From: a virus
Lineage: Duplodnaviria; Heunggongvirae; Uroviricota; Caudoviricetes
Virus record (IMG/VR): IMGVR_UViG_3300010998_001290
Reading direction: 5' to 3' (one strand)
DNA length: 22,273 nucleotides
Positions within the stretch are counted from its first letter, which is position 1. Every line of letters starts with the position of its first letter. The notes below the pieces were generated by a model. The model was not told the origin of the DNA, searched no databases, and saw only the letters and a list, made by a program, of their open reading frames with translations. Position numbers and translations under genes: made by a program. Positions 32 to 15,137 of the stretch are shown piece after piece.

Positions 32-271
32 ATGTTCAAAAACAAAAGACTTGCATCACTTGCAATAATCGCATTATTTACAGTAATGCTTGGGGTTGGA
101 ATACAGGTGAGCGACATACTATTATATATATTACCTGTTCTTCCGGCATATATTATCGGAATGGCGTTCGGTATGTTATTTATGGGTGTTACAGCCAATT
201 TACTTAATGCTATATTCCCGGAGATATTTGAAATAGATACGCCGAACAATGAGGATTTTGAAAGTTTTTGA
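32..271 (+). CDS. small membrane protein, hypothetical
   Basis: 79 aa ORF, RBS ggag upstream, two to three hydrophobic segments and an acidic tail. Confidence 0.7.
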   Translation: MFKNKRLASLAIIALFTVMLGVGIQVSDILLYILPVLPAYIIGMAFGMLFMGVTANLLNAIFPEIFEIDTPNNEDFESF

Positions 272-277
272 AAATAA

Positions 278-330
278 TCTGTGTACGAGAGACAATAGTT
301 TGTAAATTTCCTTCCGAAAAGTCATACTAA
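278..330 (+). promoter_or_regulatory. conserved element promoter motif upstream of cas12f
   Basis: atctgtgtac-N6-caatag...tcatacta, also at ~5101, ~10555 and ~14079; catact is a -10-like hexamer. Confidence 0.7.
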
Positions 331-416
331 TAGCGTAAATACTTTGACGGGCGATTGAGCAGGTCAAAGAAAAATAAACTGTGTTAAGCCGAAAGGCGGA
401 AAGGAAGGTTATTTAT

Positions 417-1865
417 ATGGAAAAGAGAAAGTTCACGAAGGCAACAAGGATACAGATCGTCTATGATGATCCGATGTTCATGAAAAAGGACGAAGACGGA
501 GTCCAGTCTCATGTTGAATATCGTGACCTGTGTAAGCTGCTTCATCAGCTTCAGCGTGAAAACAGGACGATATCCAATTTCACTATACGCTATGAGCATA
601 TGTATAAGGATATCGAGATGAACTTCAACGACAAACTTGGGCACTTTCCTTCGAAGGAAGAGAAGGAAGAACTCCTCGGCGGCTATACATCTATGTCCGG
701 CAAGATTTACAGCATTCTGACGAAGAAGGGCTTTATATCGAACAAGTCTAATATGTCCGGCGCTATCAGGCTTGCTGAAAAGCACTATAAGAATCATCTC
801 AAGCACATCCTCAGGGGTGACGAGTCGCTTCCTTCGTACAAGAACAATATGCCTATCGACATAGTAAGTCAGAACATTGTCATTACCCACGAAGAAGTAG
901 ATAATGCCGAGGATGGCAAGAGATATACCAACCGCTACTTTACAATCTCGCTTTTTAGCAAGAAGGAAAGCGATGATGCCGGTTATAACAAGACAGCGAT
1001 AAGATTCAAGTGTGTAGTCAAGGGTAAGAATGCCGGCTCCAGAAGTGTGCTTTCCATTATAGACCGCTGCGAGTCTATGGAATACAAGCTCTGTGGAAGC
1101 AAGATCCAGTACGATGAACAGAAGAAGAAGTGGTATCTCCTTCTTACATATCAGCACGAAAAGGAAGTTGAGCTTCCCGAAGACGTAAGTGAAGACAATG
1201 TAATAGGCGTTCACATCGGCGTTCATAACGCAATCGAGGCGGTTTACGGTCACAGACCGAGAGGCTTTGCTATCGAAGGCGGCGAAACAGAAAAATACGA
1301 GGAGATTATGGCGCTCAGACGCAGAGGAATCGGTCTTCTCACAAAGAAAGGTTCTCTCCTCTGCGGACCGTCAAGAATAGGTCACGGCTATAAAAAGAAG
1401 ATGCAGCCCCTCGCTAAGTTAGGGCATCGCTCTTCTAACTTCCGTGATACAGTCAATAAACGCTATGCGGCAGCTATCGTCAAGGAAGCTCTCAGAGCCG
1501 GAGCAGGCACTATGAACCTCGAAGACCTTAAGGATCTTGCAAAAGAGGAACTTCTGTACGAGTCCAAGCTCCACAACTGGTCTTACTACGATCTTACAAA
1601 CAAGATTGAAAGCAAGGCAACTGAAGCAGGAATGGTCGTTCATCGTATCGACTTCCATAAGCTTCATAGATATTGTCCTGACTGCAACGCTCTCAGCGTC
1701 AAGAAGGATTATATAAGGGACGAAGATGATAAGATCGTTGGGTTTACTTATCAGTGTACCGAATGCGGACAGATCATTGATATGGATACCACAGCGGCTG
1801 AACAGCTCAAAAGAAAGGATATCTCTGATATTCTTGACGGATTTGCAACGGAGGAAAGCGAATGA
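417..1865 (+). CDS. cas12f: Cas12f1/TnpB-family RNA-guided protein, RuvC-I Asp replaced by His (putative dCas12f)
   Basis: Motifs ILRGDESLPSYK, KKWYLLLTY, GVHIGV (canonical GIDLGV), IEGGE, RIGHG, NFRDTVNKRY, NLEDL, NWSYYDL..KI..KA.EAG and CxxC...CxxC match AsCas12f1 as recalled. RBS aaggaaggt precedes ATG 417; the ORF is open from GTG 381. Confidence 0.92.
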   Translation: MEKRKFTKATRIQIVYDDPMFMKKDEDGVQSHVEYRDLCKLLHQLQRENRTISNFTIRYEHMYKDIEMNFNDKLGHFPSKEEKEELLGGYTSMSGKIYSILTKKGFISNKSNMSGAIRLAEKHYKNHLKHILRGDESLPSYKNNMPIDIVSQNIVITHEEVDNAEDGKRYTNRYFTISLFSKKESDDAGYNKTAIRFKCVVKGKNAGSRSVLSIIDRCESMEYKLCGSKIQYDEQKKKWYLLLTYQHEKEVELPEDVSEDNVIGVHIGVHNAIEAVYGHRPRGFAIEGGETEKYEEIMALRRRGIGLLTKKGSLLCGPSRIGHGYKKKMQPLAKLGHRSSNFRDTVNKRYAAAIVKEALRAGAGTMNLEDLKDLAKEELLYESKLHNWSYYDLTNKIESKATEAGMVVHRIDFHKLHRYCPDCNALSVKKDYIRDEDDKIVGFTYQCTECGQIIDMDTTAAEQLKRKDISDILDGFATEESE

Positions 1866-2894: not shown

Positions 2895-2903
2895 GAGCAA
2901 AAT

Positions 2904-3033
2904 CGGGGCAGCTCGATGTCCTTGGGACGATGAAGTACCTATCAAGCATAGGCAACTCTCGTTAAGGTTAATCCCTGTACAGTAATCCACAGGGCGCTTG
3001 TGATAGTGCGAGACGCGAAGGTAGCAGAAAAAC
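2904..3033 (+). ncRNA. putative Cas12f single-guide RNA copy 1 (scaffold 2904-3013, guide cgcgaaggtagcagaaaaac)
   Basis: Dispersed repeat with covarying stems, ends agtgcgaga, resembles AsCas12f1 tracrRNA/repeat. Confidence 0.8.
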
Positions 3034-3539: not shown

Positions 3540-3546
3540 GAAATAT

Positions 3547-3675
3547 CGGGCTGGCTCGGCAGCCTTGGGACGATGAAGTGCTTATCAAGCATAAGTAACT
3601 CTCGTTAAGGTTAATTCTGCCATAGCATTCCGGCAGACACTATAGAAGTGCGAGATGGATCAATGAACAGCTGGC
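3547..3675 (+). ncRNA. putative sgRNA copy 2 (scaffold 3547-3655, guide tggatcaatgaacagctggc)
   Basis: Same scaffold with compensatory stem changes (tctgcc/ggcaga). Confidence 0.8.
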
Positions 3676-3942: not shown

Positions 3943-3962
3943 TTCTTTTACTAAGAATAATT

Positions 3963-4159
3963 CGGGCAGGCTCCGGCTATAGGCAGAGCCTGATGTCAGC
4001 TTCGCGACAGCCTTGTAGTGGACGAAAGTCAGGCATCAAGCTTTGCTTGTATCCGAGAAGCACCTATCCAAGTATAGGCAACTCTCATTAAGGTTAATTC
4101 ACACATATTATTCCGTGTGACGCTCATTAAAGTGCGAGATGCAACAAATCAGAGAAAAA
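3963..4159 (+). ncRNA. putative sgRNA copy 3, long form (scaffold 3963-4139, guide tgcaacaaatcagagaaaaa)
   Basis: Conserved 3' core plus two 5' insert modules. Confidence 0.8.
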
Positions 4160-4684: not shown

Positions 4685-5122
4685 ATGCGGCGCAAAAAGA
4701 ACTCATCAATAAACGATCTGTTGTTTGCACACAATGTTCAGCTTAAGTGCTACCCCGATAGTATTCCAAAATCGAGGTACTATCGGGAAGAAGCTGCTGA
4801 ACTTCTTGGAAAGAATGTTTGCCTTACAGGATTATTCACATTGATACACAAGGAGAACGTGGATGGCGTCAACGTCAATAAGATACTTATAGAGGATGCC
4901 GTTATAAAAAGCAGGTCTCAATCTGTAGGTATAGACCATATATGGGTGACAGTCGAGCAAGGTTTTATGCAAAGAAACAGGATAAGGCAGAACAGGAATA
5001 TCAGTTGTTCCGGATACCTTTATGAATACATAAGCAAAGGAAAACGGAATATAGGCTTTAAGCTTTGTACAGTAAAGGAAATTTCCAAAGGCGAGAAAAA
5101 ATCTGTGTACAAGGAACAATAG
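4685..5122 (+). CDS. hypothetical protein
   Basis: 145 aa ORF immediately after the preceding gene. Confidence 0.65.
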   Translation: MRRKKNSSINDLLFAHNVQLKCYPDSIPKSRYYREEAAELLGKNVCLTGLFTLIHKENVDGVNVNKILIEDAVIKSRSQSVGIDHIWVTVEQGFMQRNRIRQNRNISCSGYLYEYISKGKRNIGFKLCTVKEISKGEKKSVYKEQ

Positions 5123-5153
5123 TTTTCGATTTTCCGTCTCAGCAATCATACTA
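5101..5153 (+). promoter_or_regulatory. conserved promoter motif upstream of sgRNA copy 4 and tmRNA
   Basis: atctgtgtacaaggaacaatag...tcatacta. Confidence 0.7.
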
Positions 5154-5187
5154 TTTATATATCGACTACGACAGGTCGAAGAATATA

Positions 5188-5350
5188 CGGGCTGGCTCCG
5201 GCTACAGGCAGAGCCTGATGTCAGCTTCGCGACAGCCTTGGGACGATGAAGTGGTATCTATAGCGGTACTAACTCTCGTCAAGGTCAATTCCTGCATAGT
5301 ATTCCACAGGACACTTGTAATAGTGCGAGATCGAGAGGGTTCCGCTTACA
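5188..5350 (+). ncRNA. putative sgRNA copy 4 (scaffold 5188-5330, guide tcgagagggttccgcttaca)
   Basis: Conserved scaffold; 22 nt separate the scaffold end from the tmRNA 5' end. Confidence 0.8.
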
Positions 5351-5352
5351 AT

Positions 5353-5709
5353 GGGGACGTAAAGGTTTCGACGGGGGTTTTGAAGGTCATTAAGCGCATA
5401 GAGTTCGTCTAAACTCTTTAATAATGGACACCTTAAAATTAAACGCAGACATTTATCACAACGATCTTGCGGTAGCTGCCTAATAGTGCGGCTCGTCCGG
5501 CTTAAGAGTGCTGCGGCTTAAGCTTGGGCGTGATACAGCAGCCAACGGCTTCGGAGAGGGTCTTGTATCTGAAACTCGTACACAAAAGACACCCGATAAA
5601 GGATCCTGTCATTCGGAGACTTTTGAGTGGTATAAAGGAATGACTATATGCGTAGAAAGATGATTGGATAAGTTTTCGGACACGGGTTCAATTCCCGTCG
5701 TCTCCACCA
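5353..5709 (+). ncRNA. ssrA: tmRNA; tag reading frame ADIYHNDLAVAA (5445-5483)
   Basis: 5' ggggacgtaaaggtttcgac; 3' T-arm gggttcaattccc and gtctccacca; acceptor with G3:U70; tag ends in AA then stop. Confidence 0.95.
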
Positions 5710-7395: not shown

Positions 7396-7480
7396 GCAGG
7401 TGTGGCGGAATAGGCAGACGCAGTGGTCTCAAACACCACGGTGGAGACACATATGGGTTCGAGTCCCATCATCTGTACCA
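7396..7480 (+). tRNA. tRNA-Leu(CAA)
   Basis: gtggt-ctcaaac-accac, long variable arm, CCA end. Confidence 0.92.
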
Positions 7481-7484
7481 TTAA

Positions 7485-7613
7485 CGGGGCAACTCGATGT
7501 CCTTGGGGCGATGAAGTGACATCTATACGCTGTTAACTCTCGCCAAGGTTAATTTCACCATAGTATTCCGGTGAACACTATGATAGTGCGAGAATTGTTA
7601 ATGCCTCTTTGAA
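7485..7613 (+). ncRNA. putative sgRNA copy 5 (scaffold 7485-7593, guide attgttaatgcctctttgaa)
   Basis: Conserved scaffold with compensatory ggcga/tcgcc and ttcacc/ggtgaa; lies between two tRNA-Leu genes. Confidence 0.8.
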
Positions 7614-7628
7614 ACATGTATATTATTA

Positions 7629-7714
7629 GCAGGCGTGGCGTAACTGGCAGTCGCTCCGGACTTAAAATCCGGTGATCTTAGATCGTGAGGGTTCAAATCC
7701 CTTCGCCTGTACCA
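7629..7714 (+). tRNA. tRNA-Leu(UAA)
   Basis: ccgga-cttaaaa-tccgg, long variable arm, CCA end. Confidence 0.92.
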
Positions 7715-9567: not shown

Positions 9568-9822
9568 GTGCTCAATGCAAAGAAATTCAGAGAAATGGCT
9601 GATATGTTCTGGGAAAATAACAATGATAAGATCGCTGATATACTCAACGAAGTTCAGGAAGCGGCAAAGAATGGCTGTTATTCGGTAATAGTGGCGAGAG
9701 ACAGAGTGCTCAACGAAAGAGTTGTTGAGCGTCTTAAGAGATTAGGACTCACGGTGGAGTGCCTGTCATCAGAAGGCGTGGTGCATAAATATCGCATCTC
9801 TTTCTTGACCACGGAAGAGTAA
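9568..9822 (+). CDS. hypothetical phage protein
   Basis: RBS gaggtg before GTG 9568 (ORF open from 9559). Confidence 0.7.
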   Translation: MLNAKKFREMADMFWENNNDKIADILNEVQEAAKNGCYSVIVARDRVLNERVVERLKRLGLTVECLSSEGVVHKYRISFLTTEE

Positions 9823-9926
9823 ATCGCAGGATAAAAGCGGCAAAATAAAATTGCAAGGCTCCCCTTATGGCGAACATACAGCGAGGAGCCTTTAATAATA
9901 GGATGTTACCGGAAAGGATGTTTGTT

Positions 9927-10553
9927 ATGAATAGTAAGGATACCACTGAACCGATCATTACAAGGGAAGAAATTGCCGCTCTTAACGATGACGGCAAGCT
10001 CAGACAGCGTTTTAAGAACAAGAAAGTGAACGCCAAAAAAGAAAAACTCAGGTGCGAATTGTCGTATAAAGAATATTGTTATCTTCTGAAGGTATCGGGA
10101 TACAAGTCATCGGAGCTTGGCTTCAAAGGCGAAAACCATAAAAACGTAGTTCTTGCGAGATATGAGGATAAAGGGAACTATACCTTTGAAAATTGCAGGT
10201 TTATAACACAGGAGGAAAATAATGATGAAAAACTCGATCATATGCCAGTAAATCGTCATCCGAAGATAGCTTTTTGTAAAGACTGCGGCGTAAAGATATG
10301 GAATCCATACATATATTGCACAAGATGTGCAAGGGTTCATTCAAAGAAAGTAGAGGAGTATCATTTCAGTACGAGAAAGTGTGAGCATCCAGCCAAAGAT
10401 GAGCTCCTTAAGCTCATTCAAGAGCACAGCTTTGTCTCGCTCGGTAAGATGTTTGGCGTGTCCGATAATGCCGTAAGGAAATGGTGTAAGGAATATGGAT
10501 TGCCTTTCAAGAAGAAAGACATACTTGCGCTTAAGATGAAATCCGCAGCATAA
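9927..10553 (+). CDS. His-Me finger (HNH-like) homing endonuclease with Zn ribbon and C-terminal HTH
   Basis: LARYEDKGNYTFENCRFITQEEN; CKDC...CTRC; SFVSLGKMFGVSDNAVRKW; RBS aaagga before ATG 9927. Confidence 0.7.
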   Translation: MNSKDTTEPIITREEIAALNDDGKLRQRFKNKKVNAKKEKLRCELSYKEYCYLLKVSGYKSSELGFKGENHKNVVLARYEDKGNYTFENCRFITQEENNDEKLDHMPVNRHPKIAFCKDCGVKIWNPYIYCTRCARVHSKKVEEYHFSTRKCEHPAKDELLKLIQEHSFVSLGKMFGVSDNAVRKWCKEYGLPFKKKDILALKMKSAA

Positions 10554-10726: not shown

Positions 10727-12343
10727 ATGGACACAAAATCAGAGGGAGTAGTAATTCAATCGGAGATCGTTATGCAGTATGTTAAATCATGTGCCAAGAA
10801 CAACATTGCCAAAATATATACGGTCGGAGATAACGACTCTGAAACCGTGTTGTTTGATATTGGAATAAGCGATGTCAATAAGCACAGCATATCATTTCCT
10901 ATAAAGGATGACAACGGCAGATGCGTTATGGCTCATATTGAATTTCTGAGTTGTGCCAATCCAAATGAAGTTGACTTAGATAATTGTAAGTATATTGTGG
11001 CTATGCTCTATATTGCCAAAAGCCTTTCAGATTGCAGGGAAGAATGCCAAAAGGCAAAGCTTACTGACGCTCAGACGGGTATTCCGAATGTAATTGCCAT
11101 AAGCAGGAAATACAACAAAATTCGCAAGAAGATGAAGGCACAGAATTTGGTCGTACTGTTCATAAACATTCAGAACTTCAAATATATCAACGAAACCAAT
11201 GGAGCCAAGCACGGAGATGATGTCTTAAGAGCATATGCAAATGCTTTGACCGGGATTGTAGATGAGGAAGAGTGCGTGTGTCATATGGGCGGAGACAGCT
11301 TTGGAATGTTCATCAAAATAGAACATAAGCATGATGTTCTCAGCAAGCTTAAGTGTATCTTCATAGGGCATCTGAGGAAAAATTCTGAAAAGACATTTGA
11401 GATATCTTCGTGGATAGGTCTGTCTGAATGCGATAAAAACACAAGCAAGACGTTTATAGAGCGGCTTGACGAGGCATCAACCGCTTGCTTTATGGGAAAG
11501 GGCAGGCTTAAGAAGAATGTGGTGACATATTCCAATGAGCTCCGAAGAAAGATGGATGAAAACAGAGAGATCATCGCTATGTTCCGTCCTGCTATACTCA
11601 ACCATGAATTTACTCCTTTCTTTCAGGCAAAGGTAGACATGGAAACGGGGGATCTTGTAGGATTTGAGTCTCTTTGCCGTTGGATACATAACGGTAGATT
11701 TATCTATCTGGATCAGTTCATTCCGCTTTTGGACAAAGAAGAACTTATTCCTGATTTGGATATGACCATTTTTGATGAAACCTGCCGAGCTATCAGCAGA
11801 TGGAAGGAAATGGGGCTTAATCCTCCAAGAATATCATCGAACTTCTCAAGAAAGAACCTCTTTGTGCCTTCCGTAGAGAAAAAGATATACGAAACTATCA
11901 AGAAGAACAACATCGATGTCAATGACGTTGAGATAGAGATCACAGAAAGCGTCAAGGAAAGTGAGACAAACCGTCTTATAGATTTTGTACATCAGCTTAA
12001 GAATTACGGAATCCACATCTCTATAGACGACTTTGGCACCGGCTATTCCTCTCTGCTTCTCATACACAACATAGATGCTGATGTTATCAAGATCGATAAG
12101 TCGTTCATCGAGGAGCTTCCTGAAGACAGAAAGTCTATCGTTCTTATTGAGAGTATCATAAGCATCGCCAAAAACCTCAATATGACACTTATCGCAGAGG
12201 GAGTTGAGACGGCAGAGCAGGGGAAAAAACTCATTGAGCTTGGGTGCTCTACAGCTCAAGGGTACTATTATAGTAAGCCTATGGATTTTGAAGCAGCTAC
12301 TGAGGTTATAAGAAATCCAACTTTTAAGGCAATCAAGCACTGA
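10727..12343 (+). CDS. GGDEF-EAL protein (degenerate GGDSF, intact EAL-type PDE residues)
   Basis: MGGDSF; GFESLCRW, EITES, DDFGTGYSS, IKIDKS, EGVET, QGYYYS. Confidence 0.92.
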   Translation: MDTKSEGVVIQSEIVMQYVKSCAKNNIAKIYTVGDNDSETVLFDIGISDVNKHSISFPIKDDNGRCVMAHIEFLSCANPNEVDLDNCKYIVAMLYIAKSLSDCREECQKAKLTDAQTGIPNVIAISRKYNKIRKKMKAQNLVVLFINIQNFKYINETNGAKHGDDVLRAYANALTGIVDEEECVCHMGGDSFGMFIKIEHKHDVLSKLKCIFIGHLRKNSEKTFEISSWIGLSECDKNTSKTFIERLDEASTACFMGKGRLKKNVVTYSNELRRKMDENREIIAMFRPAILNHEFTPFFQAKVDMETGDLVGFESLCRWIHNGRFIYLDQFIPLLDKEELIPDLDMTIFDETCRAISRWKEMGLNPPRISSNFSRKNLFVPSVEKKIYETIKKNNIDVNDVEIEITESVKESETNRLIDFVHQLKNYGIHISIDDFGTGYSSLLLIHNIDADVIKIDKSFIEELPEDRKSIVLIESIISIAKNLNMTLIAEGVETAEQGKKLIELGCSTAQGYYYSKPMDFEAATEVIRNPTFKAIKH

Positions 12344-12385: not shown

Positions 12386-14071
12386 ATGGATAAATCGGTA
12401 AAGAAAAAGAAGAAATATGTGCCCTACGCCATATATATTCTCTTATTGCTTTTAGCTACACTCATTTTCTTGTCAGCTAATATACTTGTGCCATATAGCA
12501 TAAGCAAAGATTATGAAGATTTCAGCGGAGGCTGGGTGGACGAATCCGGGAACGAGGTCAATCTTGATAAAATAACACAAGATGTAGTGGTAAGAAAAGA
12601 TATATCTCCGGAATATCGCGAAACATCGGTGTTTATGAGGGCAAAGAATATAAATATTGATGTTTACCTTGATGACAAATTGTATAAATCCTACGGAAAA
12701 GATATGCTAAAAAACGTATTTTATAAAACTCCGGGAACTTATTTTGTCACAGTGCCACTATCAGACTCGAATACTATAAGGATCGAGATTGAATGTCCAT
12801 ATATAAACGACAGCAGTTGTAATATCAAGGAGTTATACATCGGAGATGAAGAAAGCATTCTTAAAAACCAGATTGCTAAGCTGATGCCGGGATTTTGTGT
12901 ATGTATTTTAATAATAATGCTCGGATTTATTTTCTGTACAGCAGCCGTAGCGATGCGCAAATATGGAGAAAACGCTATGAGCTTATTGGCTCTCGGACTG
13001 TTTAACTGCACCTTCGGGGTGTGGTCAGGACTTGAAATGAAACTTTTACAACTGGTTGTTGACAATCCTGCTCCTATACATCTCGGTGTACATTTATCGC
13101 TTATGCTTACAGTAATACCGATTTTCATTTTCTTCAGACAGAGGGGGGAGACCAAGGACAAAATCGGGCTGTATGCTATAATAACGATTACATCGTTAAT
13201 GTTTACATTTAACGTCCTTTCACATTTCCTATACTTTATGGATATGCATGAAACTATAGTCTTTTCACATGTGACTCTTGGTGCCGGAAGTGCGTTTACG
13301 TTAAAATATGCATTTGATATCTTAAGAAAATCGAAATTTAAGGAGCCTACATTTTGGGGACTGACTATCATCGGAATTTGTGCGGTAATTGATGTTGTAT
13401 TATACTACAATCAGATTACATATGACAGTTCTGCGTTTATCAAAATAGGTGTACTTGTATATATGATAGCTCTTGGGATTGATATTATCAGCGATTATGC
13501 CAAAATATATTCATCAAGCCTCAAGGCTAAAATGCTCGAACAGATAGCTTATGAGGACCTTCTTACGGGGTTCTATAATCACAATATGTTTATAAGCGAT
13601 ATGAAACTTATGAATAAAGAGCCAGAGAAGAACAGGGGAAAGAGTATCCTTATATTCGACATGAATTGTCTGAAATACATAAACGACACGTTCGGTCACA
13701 GCGTAGGCGATGCTGCTCTTAAGGAGTCTGCGGAATATATAAAGGAATGCTTTGGAGATATAGGAAAGTGCTACAGGACCGGCGGTGATGAATTCGCGAT
13801 CATATCCGACAATTGCACACCAAGAGCGGTAGTAAACAAGGCGTATAGCAAGCTGTGTGAGAAAACAACTGAACGCAATAGGGAGATGCCCGAAGACAAG
13901 CCGTATCCTCTCTATATAGCGTTCGGGTATGAAATAATCAAAGCGAATGCACAGGATACACTTAAGCAGGCGGATGCTAATATGTATAAGAACAAGCAGA
14001 GGATAAAAGCCGAACTTGCCGCTCAAAATCCTGAATTGATCAGGCAGAAAACAGAAAGCACCGGCTCATAA
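12386..14071 (+). CDS. membrane-bound diguanylate cyclase (extracytoplasmic domain, ~7 TM, GGDEF)
   Basis: DLLTGFYN, DMNCLKYINDTFGHSVGD, YRTGGDEF. Confidence 0.92.
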   Translation: MDKSVKKKKKYVPYAIYILLLLLATLIFLSANILVPYSISKDYEDFSGGWVDESGNEVNLDKITQDVVVRKDISPEYRETSVFMRAKNINIDVYLDDKLYKSYGKDMLKNVFYKTPGTYFVTVPLSDSNTIRIEIECPYINDSSCNIKELYIGDEESILKNQIAKLMPGFCVCILIIMLGFIFCTAAVAMRKYGENAMSLLALGLFNCTFGVWSGLEMKLLQLVVDNPAPIHLGVHLSLMLTVIPIFIFFRQRGETKDKIGLYAIITITSLMFTFNVLSHFLYFMDMHETIVFSHVTLGAGSAFTLKYAFDILRKSKFKEPTFWGLTIIGICAVIDVVLYYNQITYDSSAFIKIGVLVYMIALGIDIISDYAKIYSSSLKAKMLEQIAYEDLLTGFYNHNMFISDMKLMNKEPEKNRGKSILIFDMNCLKYINDTFGHSVGDAALKESAEYIKECFGDIGKCYRTGGDEFAIISDNCTPRAVVNKAYSKLCEKTTERNREMPEDKPYPLYIAFGYEIIKANAQDTLKQADANMYKNKQRIKAELAAQNPELIRQKTESTGS

Positions 14072-14078
14072 CAAAATA

Positions 14079-14131
14079 ATCTATGTACAAGCGGCAATAG
14101 ATTGTAATTTTTCTCGCAAAAAGTCATACTA
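14079..14131 (+). promoter_or_regulatory. conserved promoter motif upstream of sgRNA copy 6
   Basis: atctatgtacaagcggcaatag...gtcatacta, about 18 nt before the scaffold. Confidence 0.7.
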
Positions 14132-14148
14132 ATAACAAATAAATAATT

Positions 14149-14278
14149 CGGGGCAGCTCGATGCCCTTGGGACAATGAAGTGGCATCTATAAGGGTGCTA
14201 ACTCTCGTTAAGGTTAATTCATGCATAGTATTCCGCAGGACACTTATGAAGTGCGAGAGATGGTGCAGTCTGACGATA
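14149..14278 (+). ncRNA. putative sgRNA copy 6 (scaffold 14149-14258, guide gatggtgcagtctgacgata)
   Basis: Conserved scaffold directly downstream of the promoter motif. Confidence 0.8.
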
Positions 14279-14321: not shown

Positions 14322-15137
14322 ATGATTGGAGAAAAGCTCAAAGAGCTGCGTAAAAGAAACGGATTTACACAGGGTACGGTTGCAGCGGAACTCAATATGT
14401 CGAAAAACACGATTTCAAATTGGGAAACCGGAGTCAGTAGACCAAACATAAATCAGATAGCTAAATTGGCTCAGATATTCGATTGTACAACGGATTACCT
14501 GCTTGAAGGAAGTGGCGCTCAAAAAAGCATAAGATGTAACCCGAACTGTGAGTGTTTGATAGGTGACAACGAATGTGTCTGTACATATCCTTATACACAG
14601 ACGAAGGTAGGTGAGTTGTGTCAATTTCCTGAGAAAAGAAAGCTACACATTCCTCAGAATACGGTTGACCGCAAAGCCACAACTAAAATGCTCTCAAAGC
14701 TTACCGAACAGCATATAGACCCTAAAAAGGATCCTCGTGTCTATTGGGCAAGGGAAGTTACCTTTGATTATGCGACCGCCGACCCTATCCGTGTCGATTA
14801 TATGAAATTCGAGCCGATAAACAACACTGTCGGAGGCATCGAAAAGGGTGATTTCTACTGTTATGAGATAAAATCATCGGTTGATGACTTCAATTCTCCT
14901 AACGGGCACAATTTCATAGGAGATTTCAATTACTATGTAATGAAGGAAGATACCTTTGAGAAAATCAAGGATATGATACCATACAGGGTAGGGGTATATG
15001 TTCCGGACAAGGAAGGAAGACTTAAGATAAAAAGAAAGGCTATAAGAAAAGACAGAAAGCGTCCTGTTTCCGAAATGCTGCTGATGATGTTTAGATCGGC
15101 AAATCGTGACAGATATAAGGCGAGAGAAGGAGACTGA
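14322..15137 (+). CDS. XRE-family HTH fused to PD-(D/E)xK (MmcB-like) nuclease-like domain
   Basis: IGEKLKELRKRNGFTQ...TISNWETG; REVT..RVDYM...YEIKSS.DDF. Confidence 0.8.
   Translation: MIGEKLKELRKRNGFTQGTVAAELNMSKNTISNWETGVSRPNINQIAKLAQIFDCTTDYLLEGSGAQKSIRCNPNCECLIGDNECVCTYPYTQTKVGELCQFPEKRKLHIPQNTVDRKATTKMLSKLTEQHIDPKKDPRVYWAREVTFDYATADPIRVDYMKFEPINNTVGGIEKGDFYCYEIKSSVDDFNSPNGHNFIGDFNYYVMKEDTFEKIKDMIPYRVGVYVPDKEGRLKIKRKAIRKDRKRPVSEMLLMMFRSANRDRYKAREGD

Follow-up and report, generated by a model that had tools for sequence, protein, structure and literature searches.

Among described CRISPR effectors, the closest to the protein treated here is AsCas12f1 of Acidibacillus sulfuroxidans (type V-F1; 8J12, 7WJU, 8DZJ), followed by OsCas12f and SpCas12f1. 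The protein is encoded by dcas12f, a gene in a 22,273-nucleotide stretch of virus DNA (Caudoviricetes; IMG/VR record IMGVR_UViG_3300010998_001290), which as a whole is called the window below. Judged from its sequence, the product is probably an RNA-guided DNA binder, a naturally cleavage-deficient protein of the AsCas12f type. Effectors that act by binding are known from several families. Cas12c binds and silences DNA without cutting it, and the plasmid-borne Cas12m (type V-M) does so as well (PMC11656645). TldR proteins are TnpB-like nuclease-dead repressors (bioRxiv 10.1101/2023.11.30.569447). Natural dead Cas12f proteins belong to the dCas12f-sigmaE systems, RNA-guided transcription systems of Bacteroidota (Hoffmann et al., Nature 2026, PMC13472631; PDB 9N9C), in which an operonic extracytoplasmic function (ECF) sigma factor (rpoE) carries a C-terminal extension, dCas12f is C-terminally truncated and the loci are associated with helix-turn-helix (HTH) genes. 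Their dual RNAs have collapsed to chimeric single guides, another dead cluster lies next to arrays, and the guides have a length of 14-16 nt (PMC13472631). Viral CRISPR mini-arrays and single repeat units are found on mobile elements, and a RuvC-dead Cas9 of phages is a precedent for a decoy (PMC11656645).

The open reading frame (ORF) of dcas12f is not interrupted. It starts with ATG at position 417, and a good ribosome-binding site, AAGGAAGG, is located just 5' of it. The gene and the relevant codons of its RuvC site are given below; the clade mentioned is that of the relatives sharing the His residue.

417 to 1865, plus strand: dcas12f, encoding a 482-aa Cas12f, AsCas12f-like (type V-F1-like), with a His-Glu-Asp RuvC site
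1212 to 1214, plus strand: codon CAC of His266 at the position of the RuvC-I Asp (AsCas12f D225); CAT in the related locus L001 and in most clade members
1521 to 1523, plus strand: codon GAA of Glu369 (NLEDL), the RuvC-II Glu, kept and invariant in the clade
1662 to 1673, plus strand: LHRY replacing TSQR just before the first zinc-ribbon Cys, from the alignment
1785 to 1787, plus strand: codon GAT of Asp457, the RuvC-III Asp, kept within a decayed NADYNA motif (DMDTTAA versus NADYNAA)

The protein was recognised by PF07282 (Pfam, Cas12f1-like TNB domain; 31.2 bits, cut-off 26.3) and by NF040570 (NCBIfam guided_TnpB; 101.4 bits, cut-off 100). A phmmer search against the PDB matched residues 16-471 to AsCas12f (8dzj, 8j12, 7wju) with E values of 7e-57 to 2e-56; OsCas12f and SpCas12f1 came next, and Un1Cas12f and the sigma-associated dCas12f were far behind. 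An AlphaFold model calculated with 60 homologues reached a mean predicted local distance difference test score (pLDDT) of 88.6 and a predicted template-modelling score (pTM) of 0.76, and its top structural neighbours were 8j12_A (TM by target 0.80), 8dzj and 7wju. By its TnpB-like architecture (WED/REC, RuvC, zinc-ribbon TNB) in the class of about 400-550 aa the protein is a Cas12f. The alignment of the REC/WED region with AsCas12f is free of large gaps, and the zinc-ribbon residues C420, C423, C447 and C450 are intact here and invariant in the clade. The catalytic Arg of the AsCas12f zinc ribbon, which we take to be R383, has no confident placement in the dcas12f protein, as the insert is longer here. 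An earlier note on this DNA, made from the letters alone, had described the REC/WED and zinc-finger regions as intact and the ORF as uninterrupted, in agreement with the 482-aa frame, the four Cys residues and the full-length AsCas12f alignment.

In the HMMER alignment GVHIGV of the query lies over GIDLGV of 8j12, and the ternary-complex entries 8dzj and 7wju read GIALGV there. The earlier note had also reported GVHIGV in place of GIDLGV with CAC at 1212-1214, which the PDB alignment and the codon confirm, and had named D225 of AsCas12f as a cleavage residue, which fits the Ala at the aligned site of 8dzj and 7wju. It was likewise correct in stating that the RuvC-II Glu and the RuvC-III Asp are kept (Glu369, Asp457) and that the neighbouring TSQ and Asn residues are lost. 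The RuvC triad thus reads His266-Glu369-Asp457, so that the intact Asp-Glu-Asp of Cas12f is not present. TSQ is near-universal among Asp-bearing relatives and occurs in no member of the His clade; throughout this clade TSQ and NADYNA, both nearly invariant in the Asp-bearing relatives, have degenerated into unrelated residues. An Asn is aligned at the position of the RuvC-III Asp in L002/P0003 and P0026, which belong to the clade. In RNase H-fold nucleases the first carboxylate is indispensable to two-metal catalysis, and the dcas12f protein is predicted to be cleavage-deficient. The presence of the RuvC-II Glu does not point to activity, since this Glu is also retained in most lineages of our tree that became dead independently (F/I/T, N, V, K/Q and Y at the RuvC-I position).

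The His residue is not private to the window. Protein P0002 (locus L001, an 87.6-kb contig from a different sample) is 96% identical and has the His codon CAT. The two genes show 87 synonymous and 20 non-synonymous differences (dS 0.38, dN 0.0175), and the resulting dN/dS of 0.046 indicates strong purifying selection. GVHI is present in all farther relatives (33-38% identity), which are located on short metagenome contigs (L002, L003) or in GTDB metagenome-assembled genomes (MAGs; L017, L018, L019, L020, L021, L024) labelled as Oscillospiraceae, Ruminococcus, Clostridia and, in one case, as a 'Prevotella' bin. In an alignment of 12 clade members His266 is among just 66 of 482 invariant positions, with CAC/CAT as synonymous variation, and Glu369 and Asp370 are invariant too. 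A maximum-likelihood tree of 128 homologues places the window protein and L001 on a long branch within a clade of 18 rows (SH-aLRT 97), none of which has the RuvC-I Asp (15 His, 1 Tyr, 1 Gln, 1 Phe). The Asp is absent from 31 of the 128 rows; independent losses elsewhere in the tree led to a Phe/Ile/Thr clade and to Asn, Val, Lys/Gln and Tyr lineages. No member of the His clade at >30% identity was found in IMG/VR, INPHARED or PLSDB. Window DNA is found in a gut metagenome, and sheep- and bovine-gut runs contain pieces that are near-identical or related to it; L017, L020 and L024 lie on elements that are conjugative or mobilisable, next to genes for relaxase, ParA, ParB and SSB. His-Cas12f appears as an old lineage on mobile elements of gut and rumen Clostridia.

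According to these data the relatives are RuvC-mutated as well, with independent substitutions elsewhere in the tree and under purifying selection, as the earlier note had anticipated for an exapted rather than decaying protein. The opposite outcome, Asp in all close homologues, did not occur: all 12 clade members have His, and Asp is found in 0/18 clade rows. The view of an exapted protein is supported by this conservation, by the intact fold and by the cognate guide RNAs described below.

The same tree contains a second dead Cas12f clade (L026, L027, L032, L034 and L037 from GTDB Clostridia MAGs, and P0050). It has Phe, Ile or Thr at the RuvC-I and Phe, His or Tyr at the RuvC-III position, and its branch lies within the active Ruminococcus-type proteins (SH-aLRT 100).

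Seven copies of a structured element, about 110-180 nt long, are present in the window, all on the plus strand and all intergenic:

2903 to 3013, plus strand: scaffold copy 1 (121.7 bits with covariance model R1); candidate guide from 3014
3546 to 3655, plus strand: scaffold copy 2 (covariance model R1); candidate guide from 3656
3962 to 4139, plus strand: scaffold copy 3, with an extra 5' hairpin and an insertion; candidate guide from 4140
5187 to 5330, plus strand: scaffold copy 4, with a 22-nt candidate guide (5331-5352) that directly adjoins the transfer-messenger RNA (tmRNA) gene at 5353-5709
7484 to 7593, plus strand: scaffold copy 5, between the tRNA-Leu genes 7396-7480 and 7629-7714
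14148 to 14258, plus strand: scaffold copy 6, with a promoter-like box immediately before it and the HTH gene 14322-15137 downstream
17945 to 18091, plus strand: scaffold copy 7; 26-nt candidate guide 18092-18117, then an intrinsic terminator (18118-18139) and a T run

Compensatory changes were found at 11 of the 27 predicted base pairs. The likeness among the seven copies ends right after ...GTGCGAGA, and a distinct sequence follows 3' of each copy. No CRISPR array was detected in the window by TRF. At Rfam gathering thresholds the scaffold was not recognised, and only the tmRNA and tRNAs gave matches; a pattern search for the scaffold found nothing in IMG/VR and one further copy (L053) in JGI metagenomes.

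R1, the covariance model built from the seven copies, gave weak matches exactly beside homologous genes, namely flanking the His-clade gene of L021 on either side and immediately downstream of the L038 gene, which looks active. A motif scan revealed the conserved hairpin five times in L019. Mini CRISPR arrays (1-5 spacers, period 64-67 nt) behind a scaffold of about 176 nt occur at several sites around the gene in L017, L019, L020 and L024. In the active Ruminococcus systems L030 and L023 the scaffold is flanked by cas12f and by a normal array; CTGCGAG(A) is the end of the array's repeats. A joint alignment (A5) with the trans-activating CRISPR RNA (tracrRNA) and first repeat of L030 and L023 (active) and of L017, L019 and L020 (His clade) showed that the window element consists of the tracrRNA and the 3' end of the repeat and has lost the anti-repeat:repeat segment; its 3' handle, GTGCGAGA, matches the repeat end of L030 and L023. 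From this alignment we identify the window scaffolds as putative natural single-guide RNAs (sgRNAs), i.e. fusions of tracrRNA and CRISPR RNA (crRNA). The combination of tracrRNA and repeat-spacer units that is typical of Cas12f would then be present in the window in a modified form.

Locus L021 has the collapsed single-guide form, and arrays persist in its nearest relative, L019. The proteins of L017 and L018 are virtually identical and their spacers differ, so their arrays turn over. In one related strain of the window the stretch between scaffold 4 and the tmRNA gene is swapped and both flanks are kept. Across the clade the scaffold RNA is the only feature that co-occurs with the protein; no conserved protein partner was found among the neighbours of eight loci.

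Two side observations concern the arrays of the relatives. The near-identical cas12f and tracrRNA of L017 and L018 (about 9690-10010) come from an Oscillospiraceae MAG and from the bin labelled Prevotella; either the same conjugative element resides in two hosts or one bin is wrong, and the spacer turnover is real in both cases. Furthermore, a short perfect palindrome, a different one in each relative (TTCGCCAATGGCGAA in L017), is located directly upstream of each tracrRNA unit and elsewhere on the element (L017: 9670-9690, 11650-11670, 12610-12630; L019: 3795-3816 and many more; L020: 8630-8650 and others). These palindromes are possibly operators or terminators framing the guide cassettes.

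For the expression of the guides the following features have to be considered in addition.

271 to 332, plus strand: promoter-like box upstream of dcas12f (62 nt, ending in CATACTAATA; family D5, 4 copies)
5353 to 5709: tmRNA gene with tag ADIYHNDLAVAA
6089 to 9542: nine tRNA genes (Gly, Lys, Leu x2, Pro, Met, Ser, Cys, Trp)

The same box precedes guide copies 4 (box 5095-5156) and 6 (box 14073-14134), and L053, an independent metagenome contig, has the same order of box, scaffold, guide and HTH gene with another guide. The D5 box would accordingly be a candidate promoter. No such box of its own precedes any of the other five scaffolds. Copies other than 4-7 are preceded by stop codons, and their variable parts extend into the following gene's ribosome-binding site, an arrangement that fits processing from polycistronic transcripts. 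Two guide-RNA scaffolds are embedded among the tmRNA and tRNA genes. With tRNA-Leu genes on both sides of copy 5 and a gap of 22 nt from copy 4 to the tmRNA gene, both guides could be freed by the host enzymes RNase P and RNase Z, in the manner of engineered tRNA-gRNA arrays. Contigs of the metatranscriptome run X20 cover 403-834, 1838-2319 and other parts of the window, which is no evidence of transcription because the RNA library may contain DNA.

Taken together, the observations on protein and RNA are best explained by RNA-guided DNA binding. The dcas12f protein would load the element's own sgRNAs, which are scattered between genes, tRNAs and tmRNA; the loaded complex would bind complementary DNA without cutting it, and the bound complex would block transcription or replication of its targets, either host genes or rival mobile elements. 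A more far-reaching and clearly more tentative proposal is that a phage-like rumen element runs multiplexed CRISPR interference (CRISPRi) by means of one dead Cas12f and many stand-alone sgRNA genes, silencing genes of the host or of rival elements. The sgRNAs might in this case be freed from phage transcripts through phage promoters, intrinsic terminators and tRNA-processing enzymes of the host, and the invariant His might be the remnant of a pocket re-used for RNA handling.

Several points count against DNA binding as the function. A protospacer was not found for any guide or spacer in the collections searched. The guides gave nothing beyond chance against the window and L001 (≤4 mismatches in 18 nt), and the spacers of L017 and L019, compared to their own and four related MAGs, gave only repeat, tracrRNA, palindrome or short chance matches. 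The arrays and the guide region had no targets among INPHARED phages and PLSDB plasmids, and exact 20-mers of g6, g2, g7 and g5 were absent from IMG/VR. In GTDB genomes exact 20-mers of g4 matched once (a Chloroflexota MAG) and those of g7 twice (Bacteroidales genomes); the g7 matches stop at the 20th base and the flanks are not shared, and all three matches were taken as chance. Exact 20-mer searches would miss the targets if the guides comprise only 14-16 nt, as in sigma-associated dCas12f. Guides that run into the next ribosome-binding site also fit cis-acting leader elements. Finally, the His is strictly invariant while other dead lineages show F, I, T, N or V. Simple loss of function does not explain an invariant His, the His-Glu-Asp site could still bind metal, and the RuvC pocket probably retains some role, be it structural, in ion or phosphate binding, or in RNA handling.

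The main rival starts from this pocket: the His-Glu-Asp site may have been re-tooled for maturation of guide RNAs from long phage transcripts or mini-arrays, or for cutting or nicking that depends on a different metal. Pre-crRNA processing is known from the RuvC sites of Cas12c and Cas12m. In line with a re-tooled site, His persists at 33-38% identity where other dead lineages vary, Glu369 and Asp370 do not change, the five boxless scaffolds need excision from longer transcripts, and the multi-spacer arrays of the relatives need processing. Nevertheless, L002/P0003 and P0026 have Asn for the RuvC-III Asp, the TSQ and NADYNA motifs have degenerated, the Glu is likewise kept in the majority of independently dead lineages, and host RNase P and RNase Z could trim the two guides flanked by tRNA or tmRNA genes. 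We therefore regard a re-tooled pocket as unlikely, although it deserves more weight than the explanations that follow.

Somewhat less probable still is an anti-CRISPR decoy, in which the dead protein, the scaffolds or both sequester crRNA, tracrRNA or subunits belonging to a type V-F system of the host and thereby shield the element. Ruminococcus and Oscillospiraceae genomes contain active Cas12f systems (L023, L030, L038) whose tracrRNA motifs are very similar and whose repeats share the 3' end, and Cas12f works as an asymmetric homodimer on one guide RNA, which counts in favour of such a decoy. However, the window protein is only about 30% identical to the host proteins, which makes mixed dimers unlikely. 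A pure decoy also needs neither a distinct 3' sequence for each scaffold, differing between strains, nor the arrays with changing spacers carried by the relatives on conjugative elements.

An RNA-guided activator that recruits RNA polymerase or a sigma factor, by analogy with dCas12f-sigmaE (PMC13472631), would be suggested by the HTH association known from those loci, to which the guide unit corresponds that in both the window and L053 is located immediately upstream of an HTH gene, and by a protein with Sigma70 region 4 and the C-terminal domain of RNA polymerase alpha encoded upstream of the His-clade cas12f of L019. Against this, no sigma-factor gene was found in a Pfam scan of the 20 window ORFs, no protein neighbour is conserved in the clade, and the window protein lacks the C-terminal truncation of sigma-associated dCas12f, so that we consider activation improbable. 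The L019 protein (78-815) is in itself an odd fusion, which might tie a Cas12f system to transcription. That the gene is a decaying pseudogene, or that an active nuclease shows a private mutation or a sequencing error, is an explanation for which nothing speaks but the substitution itself; it is already refuted by the intact ORF, the dN/dS value, the two His codons, the clade-wide change and the confident model, and has a negligible probability.

The remaining content of the window was derived from the same Pfam scan. Besides the tmRNA and the nine tRNAs, the cargo comprises GGDEF/EAL proteins, a methyltransferase, a NADAR protein, two HTH proteins and a Tn916-type excisionase and integrase. 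Adaptation genes (cas1, cas2, cas4) are part of many V-F loci, though not of all; among the Pfam matches of the 20 ORFs there was no cas1, cas2, cas4 or any other Cas family. A 236-aa ORF (1862-2572) overlaps the stop codon of dcas12f (ATGA) and encodes hydrophobic N-terminal segments and a Ser/Thr/Ala-rich linker, with no Pfam match. It is conserved in L001 and deleted in the related strain X2 (joint 1892 to 2559), and because it is absent there it is no obligatory partner of the Cas12f protein. Further features of the window are:

10727 to 12343: GGDEF+EAL protein (538 aa)
12386 to 14071: GGDEF protein (561 aa), adjacent to the former
14322 to 15137 and 17158 to 17937: HTH genes
14838-15121/16334-16617, 15170-15285/16665-16780 and 16196-16333/17420-17557: long, diverged direct repeats (72-86% identity)
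20721 to 20954: Tn916-type excisionase
20999 to 22273: tyrosine integrase, at the right end of the window

The two cyclic-di-GMP genes are an unusual cargo of a phage-like element and suggest manipulation of host signalling. The direct repeats indicate a duplicated gene module around the HTH genes; in related strains 14837 is joined to 16334, which leaves one module copy fewer. With its excisionase and integrase the element is probably integrative.

If the dcas12f protein binds DNA as proposed, it would represent a compact, naturally optimised CRISPRi protein of 482 aa with a natural sgRNA of about 110 nt, and a phage would regulate many targets through one protein. The invariant His raises the testable question which role a RuvC pocket plays once catalysis is lost. 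Both stages of guide evolution are seen side by side, with tracrRNA and mini-arrays in the relatives and collapsed single guides in the window and in L021.

Two other assignments were rejected. The nearest structures and sequences are CRISPR-associated Cas12f proteins and the TnpB models stay far below their cut-offs (IS200_TnpB 22 bits versus 425, IS607_TnpB 13.5 versus 350), so the protein is not a TldR. A Cas12k from a CRISPR-associated transposon (type V-K) does not apply either: the Pfam scan of the 20 window ORFs revealed no domains of the Tn7-like tnsB, tnsC or tniQ, and Cas12k structures rank 36th or lower by fold.

Nuclease-deficient type V effectors are already established (Cas12k, Cas12m, TldR, dCas12f-sigmaE), and the His clade forms a separate lineage, which may already be contained in large published surveys without comment. 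With AsCas12f1 the window protein shares the full-length domain order, the zinc ribbon, the RuvC-II Glu and a tracrRNA-type scaffold with a 3' guide. It differs by the RuvC-I His, the decayed TSQ and NADYNA motifs and about 60 additional residues due to insertions, including a longer zinc-ribbon loop. In contrast to the AsCas12f1 system, the window has neither a CRISPR array nor adaptation genes, and tracrRNA and crRNA are fused in at least seven dispersed genes. Viral mini-arrays are similar in that mobile elements carry few guides (1-5 spacers in L017, L019, L020 and L024) and no adaptation module, but here the element brings its own effector and a tracrRNA for each unit, and all that is left of the repeat in the window is a 3' handle joined to the tracrRNA.

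TldR resembles the dcas12f protein as a RuvC-inactivated, RNA-guided and often phage-borne regulator with a single guide RNA, but it descends directly from the TnpB of IS200/IS605 or IS607 transposons and uses one guide of the omega-RNA type, adjoining its gene at the 3' end, instead of many dispersed ones. Cas12m and Cas12c share the likely outcome, silencing by binding, and the leaning to mobile elements; they belong to other Cas12 subfamilies (Cas12m ranks only 32nd by fold) and keep a RuvC site that serves crRNA processing. The systems of the dCas12f-sigmaE type have in common with the window a natural nuclease-deficient Cas12f, chimeric single guides with the guide at the 3' end and several guide genes per locus. 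Their protein, however, is of another Cas12f lineage (9n9c: E 3e-9 by sequence, 14th by fold) and is C-terminally truncated; for the window protein inactivation by a point substitution is predicted instead. No sigma-factor gene was found in the window, and the His lineage is carried by a phage-like element and by conjugative elements of Clostridia, not by Bacteroidota chromosomes. Natural dead Cas12f has so far been characterised as chromosomal and sigma-recruiting in Bacteroidota, and the His lineage would represent a different route to the loss of cleavage.

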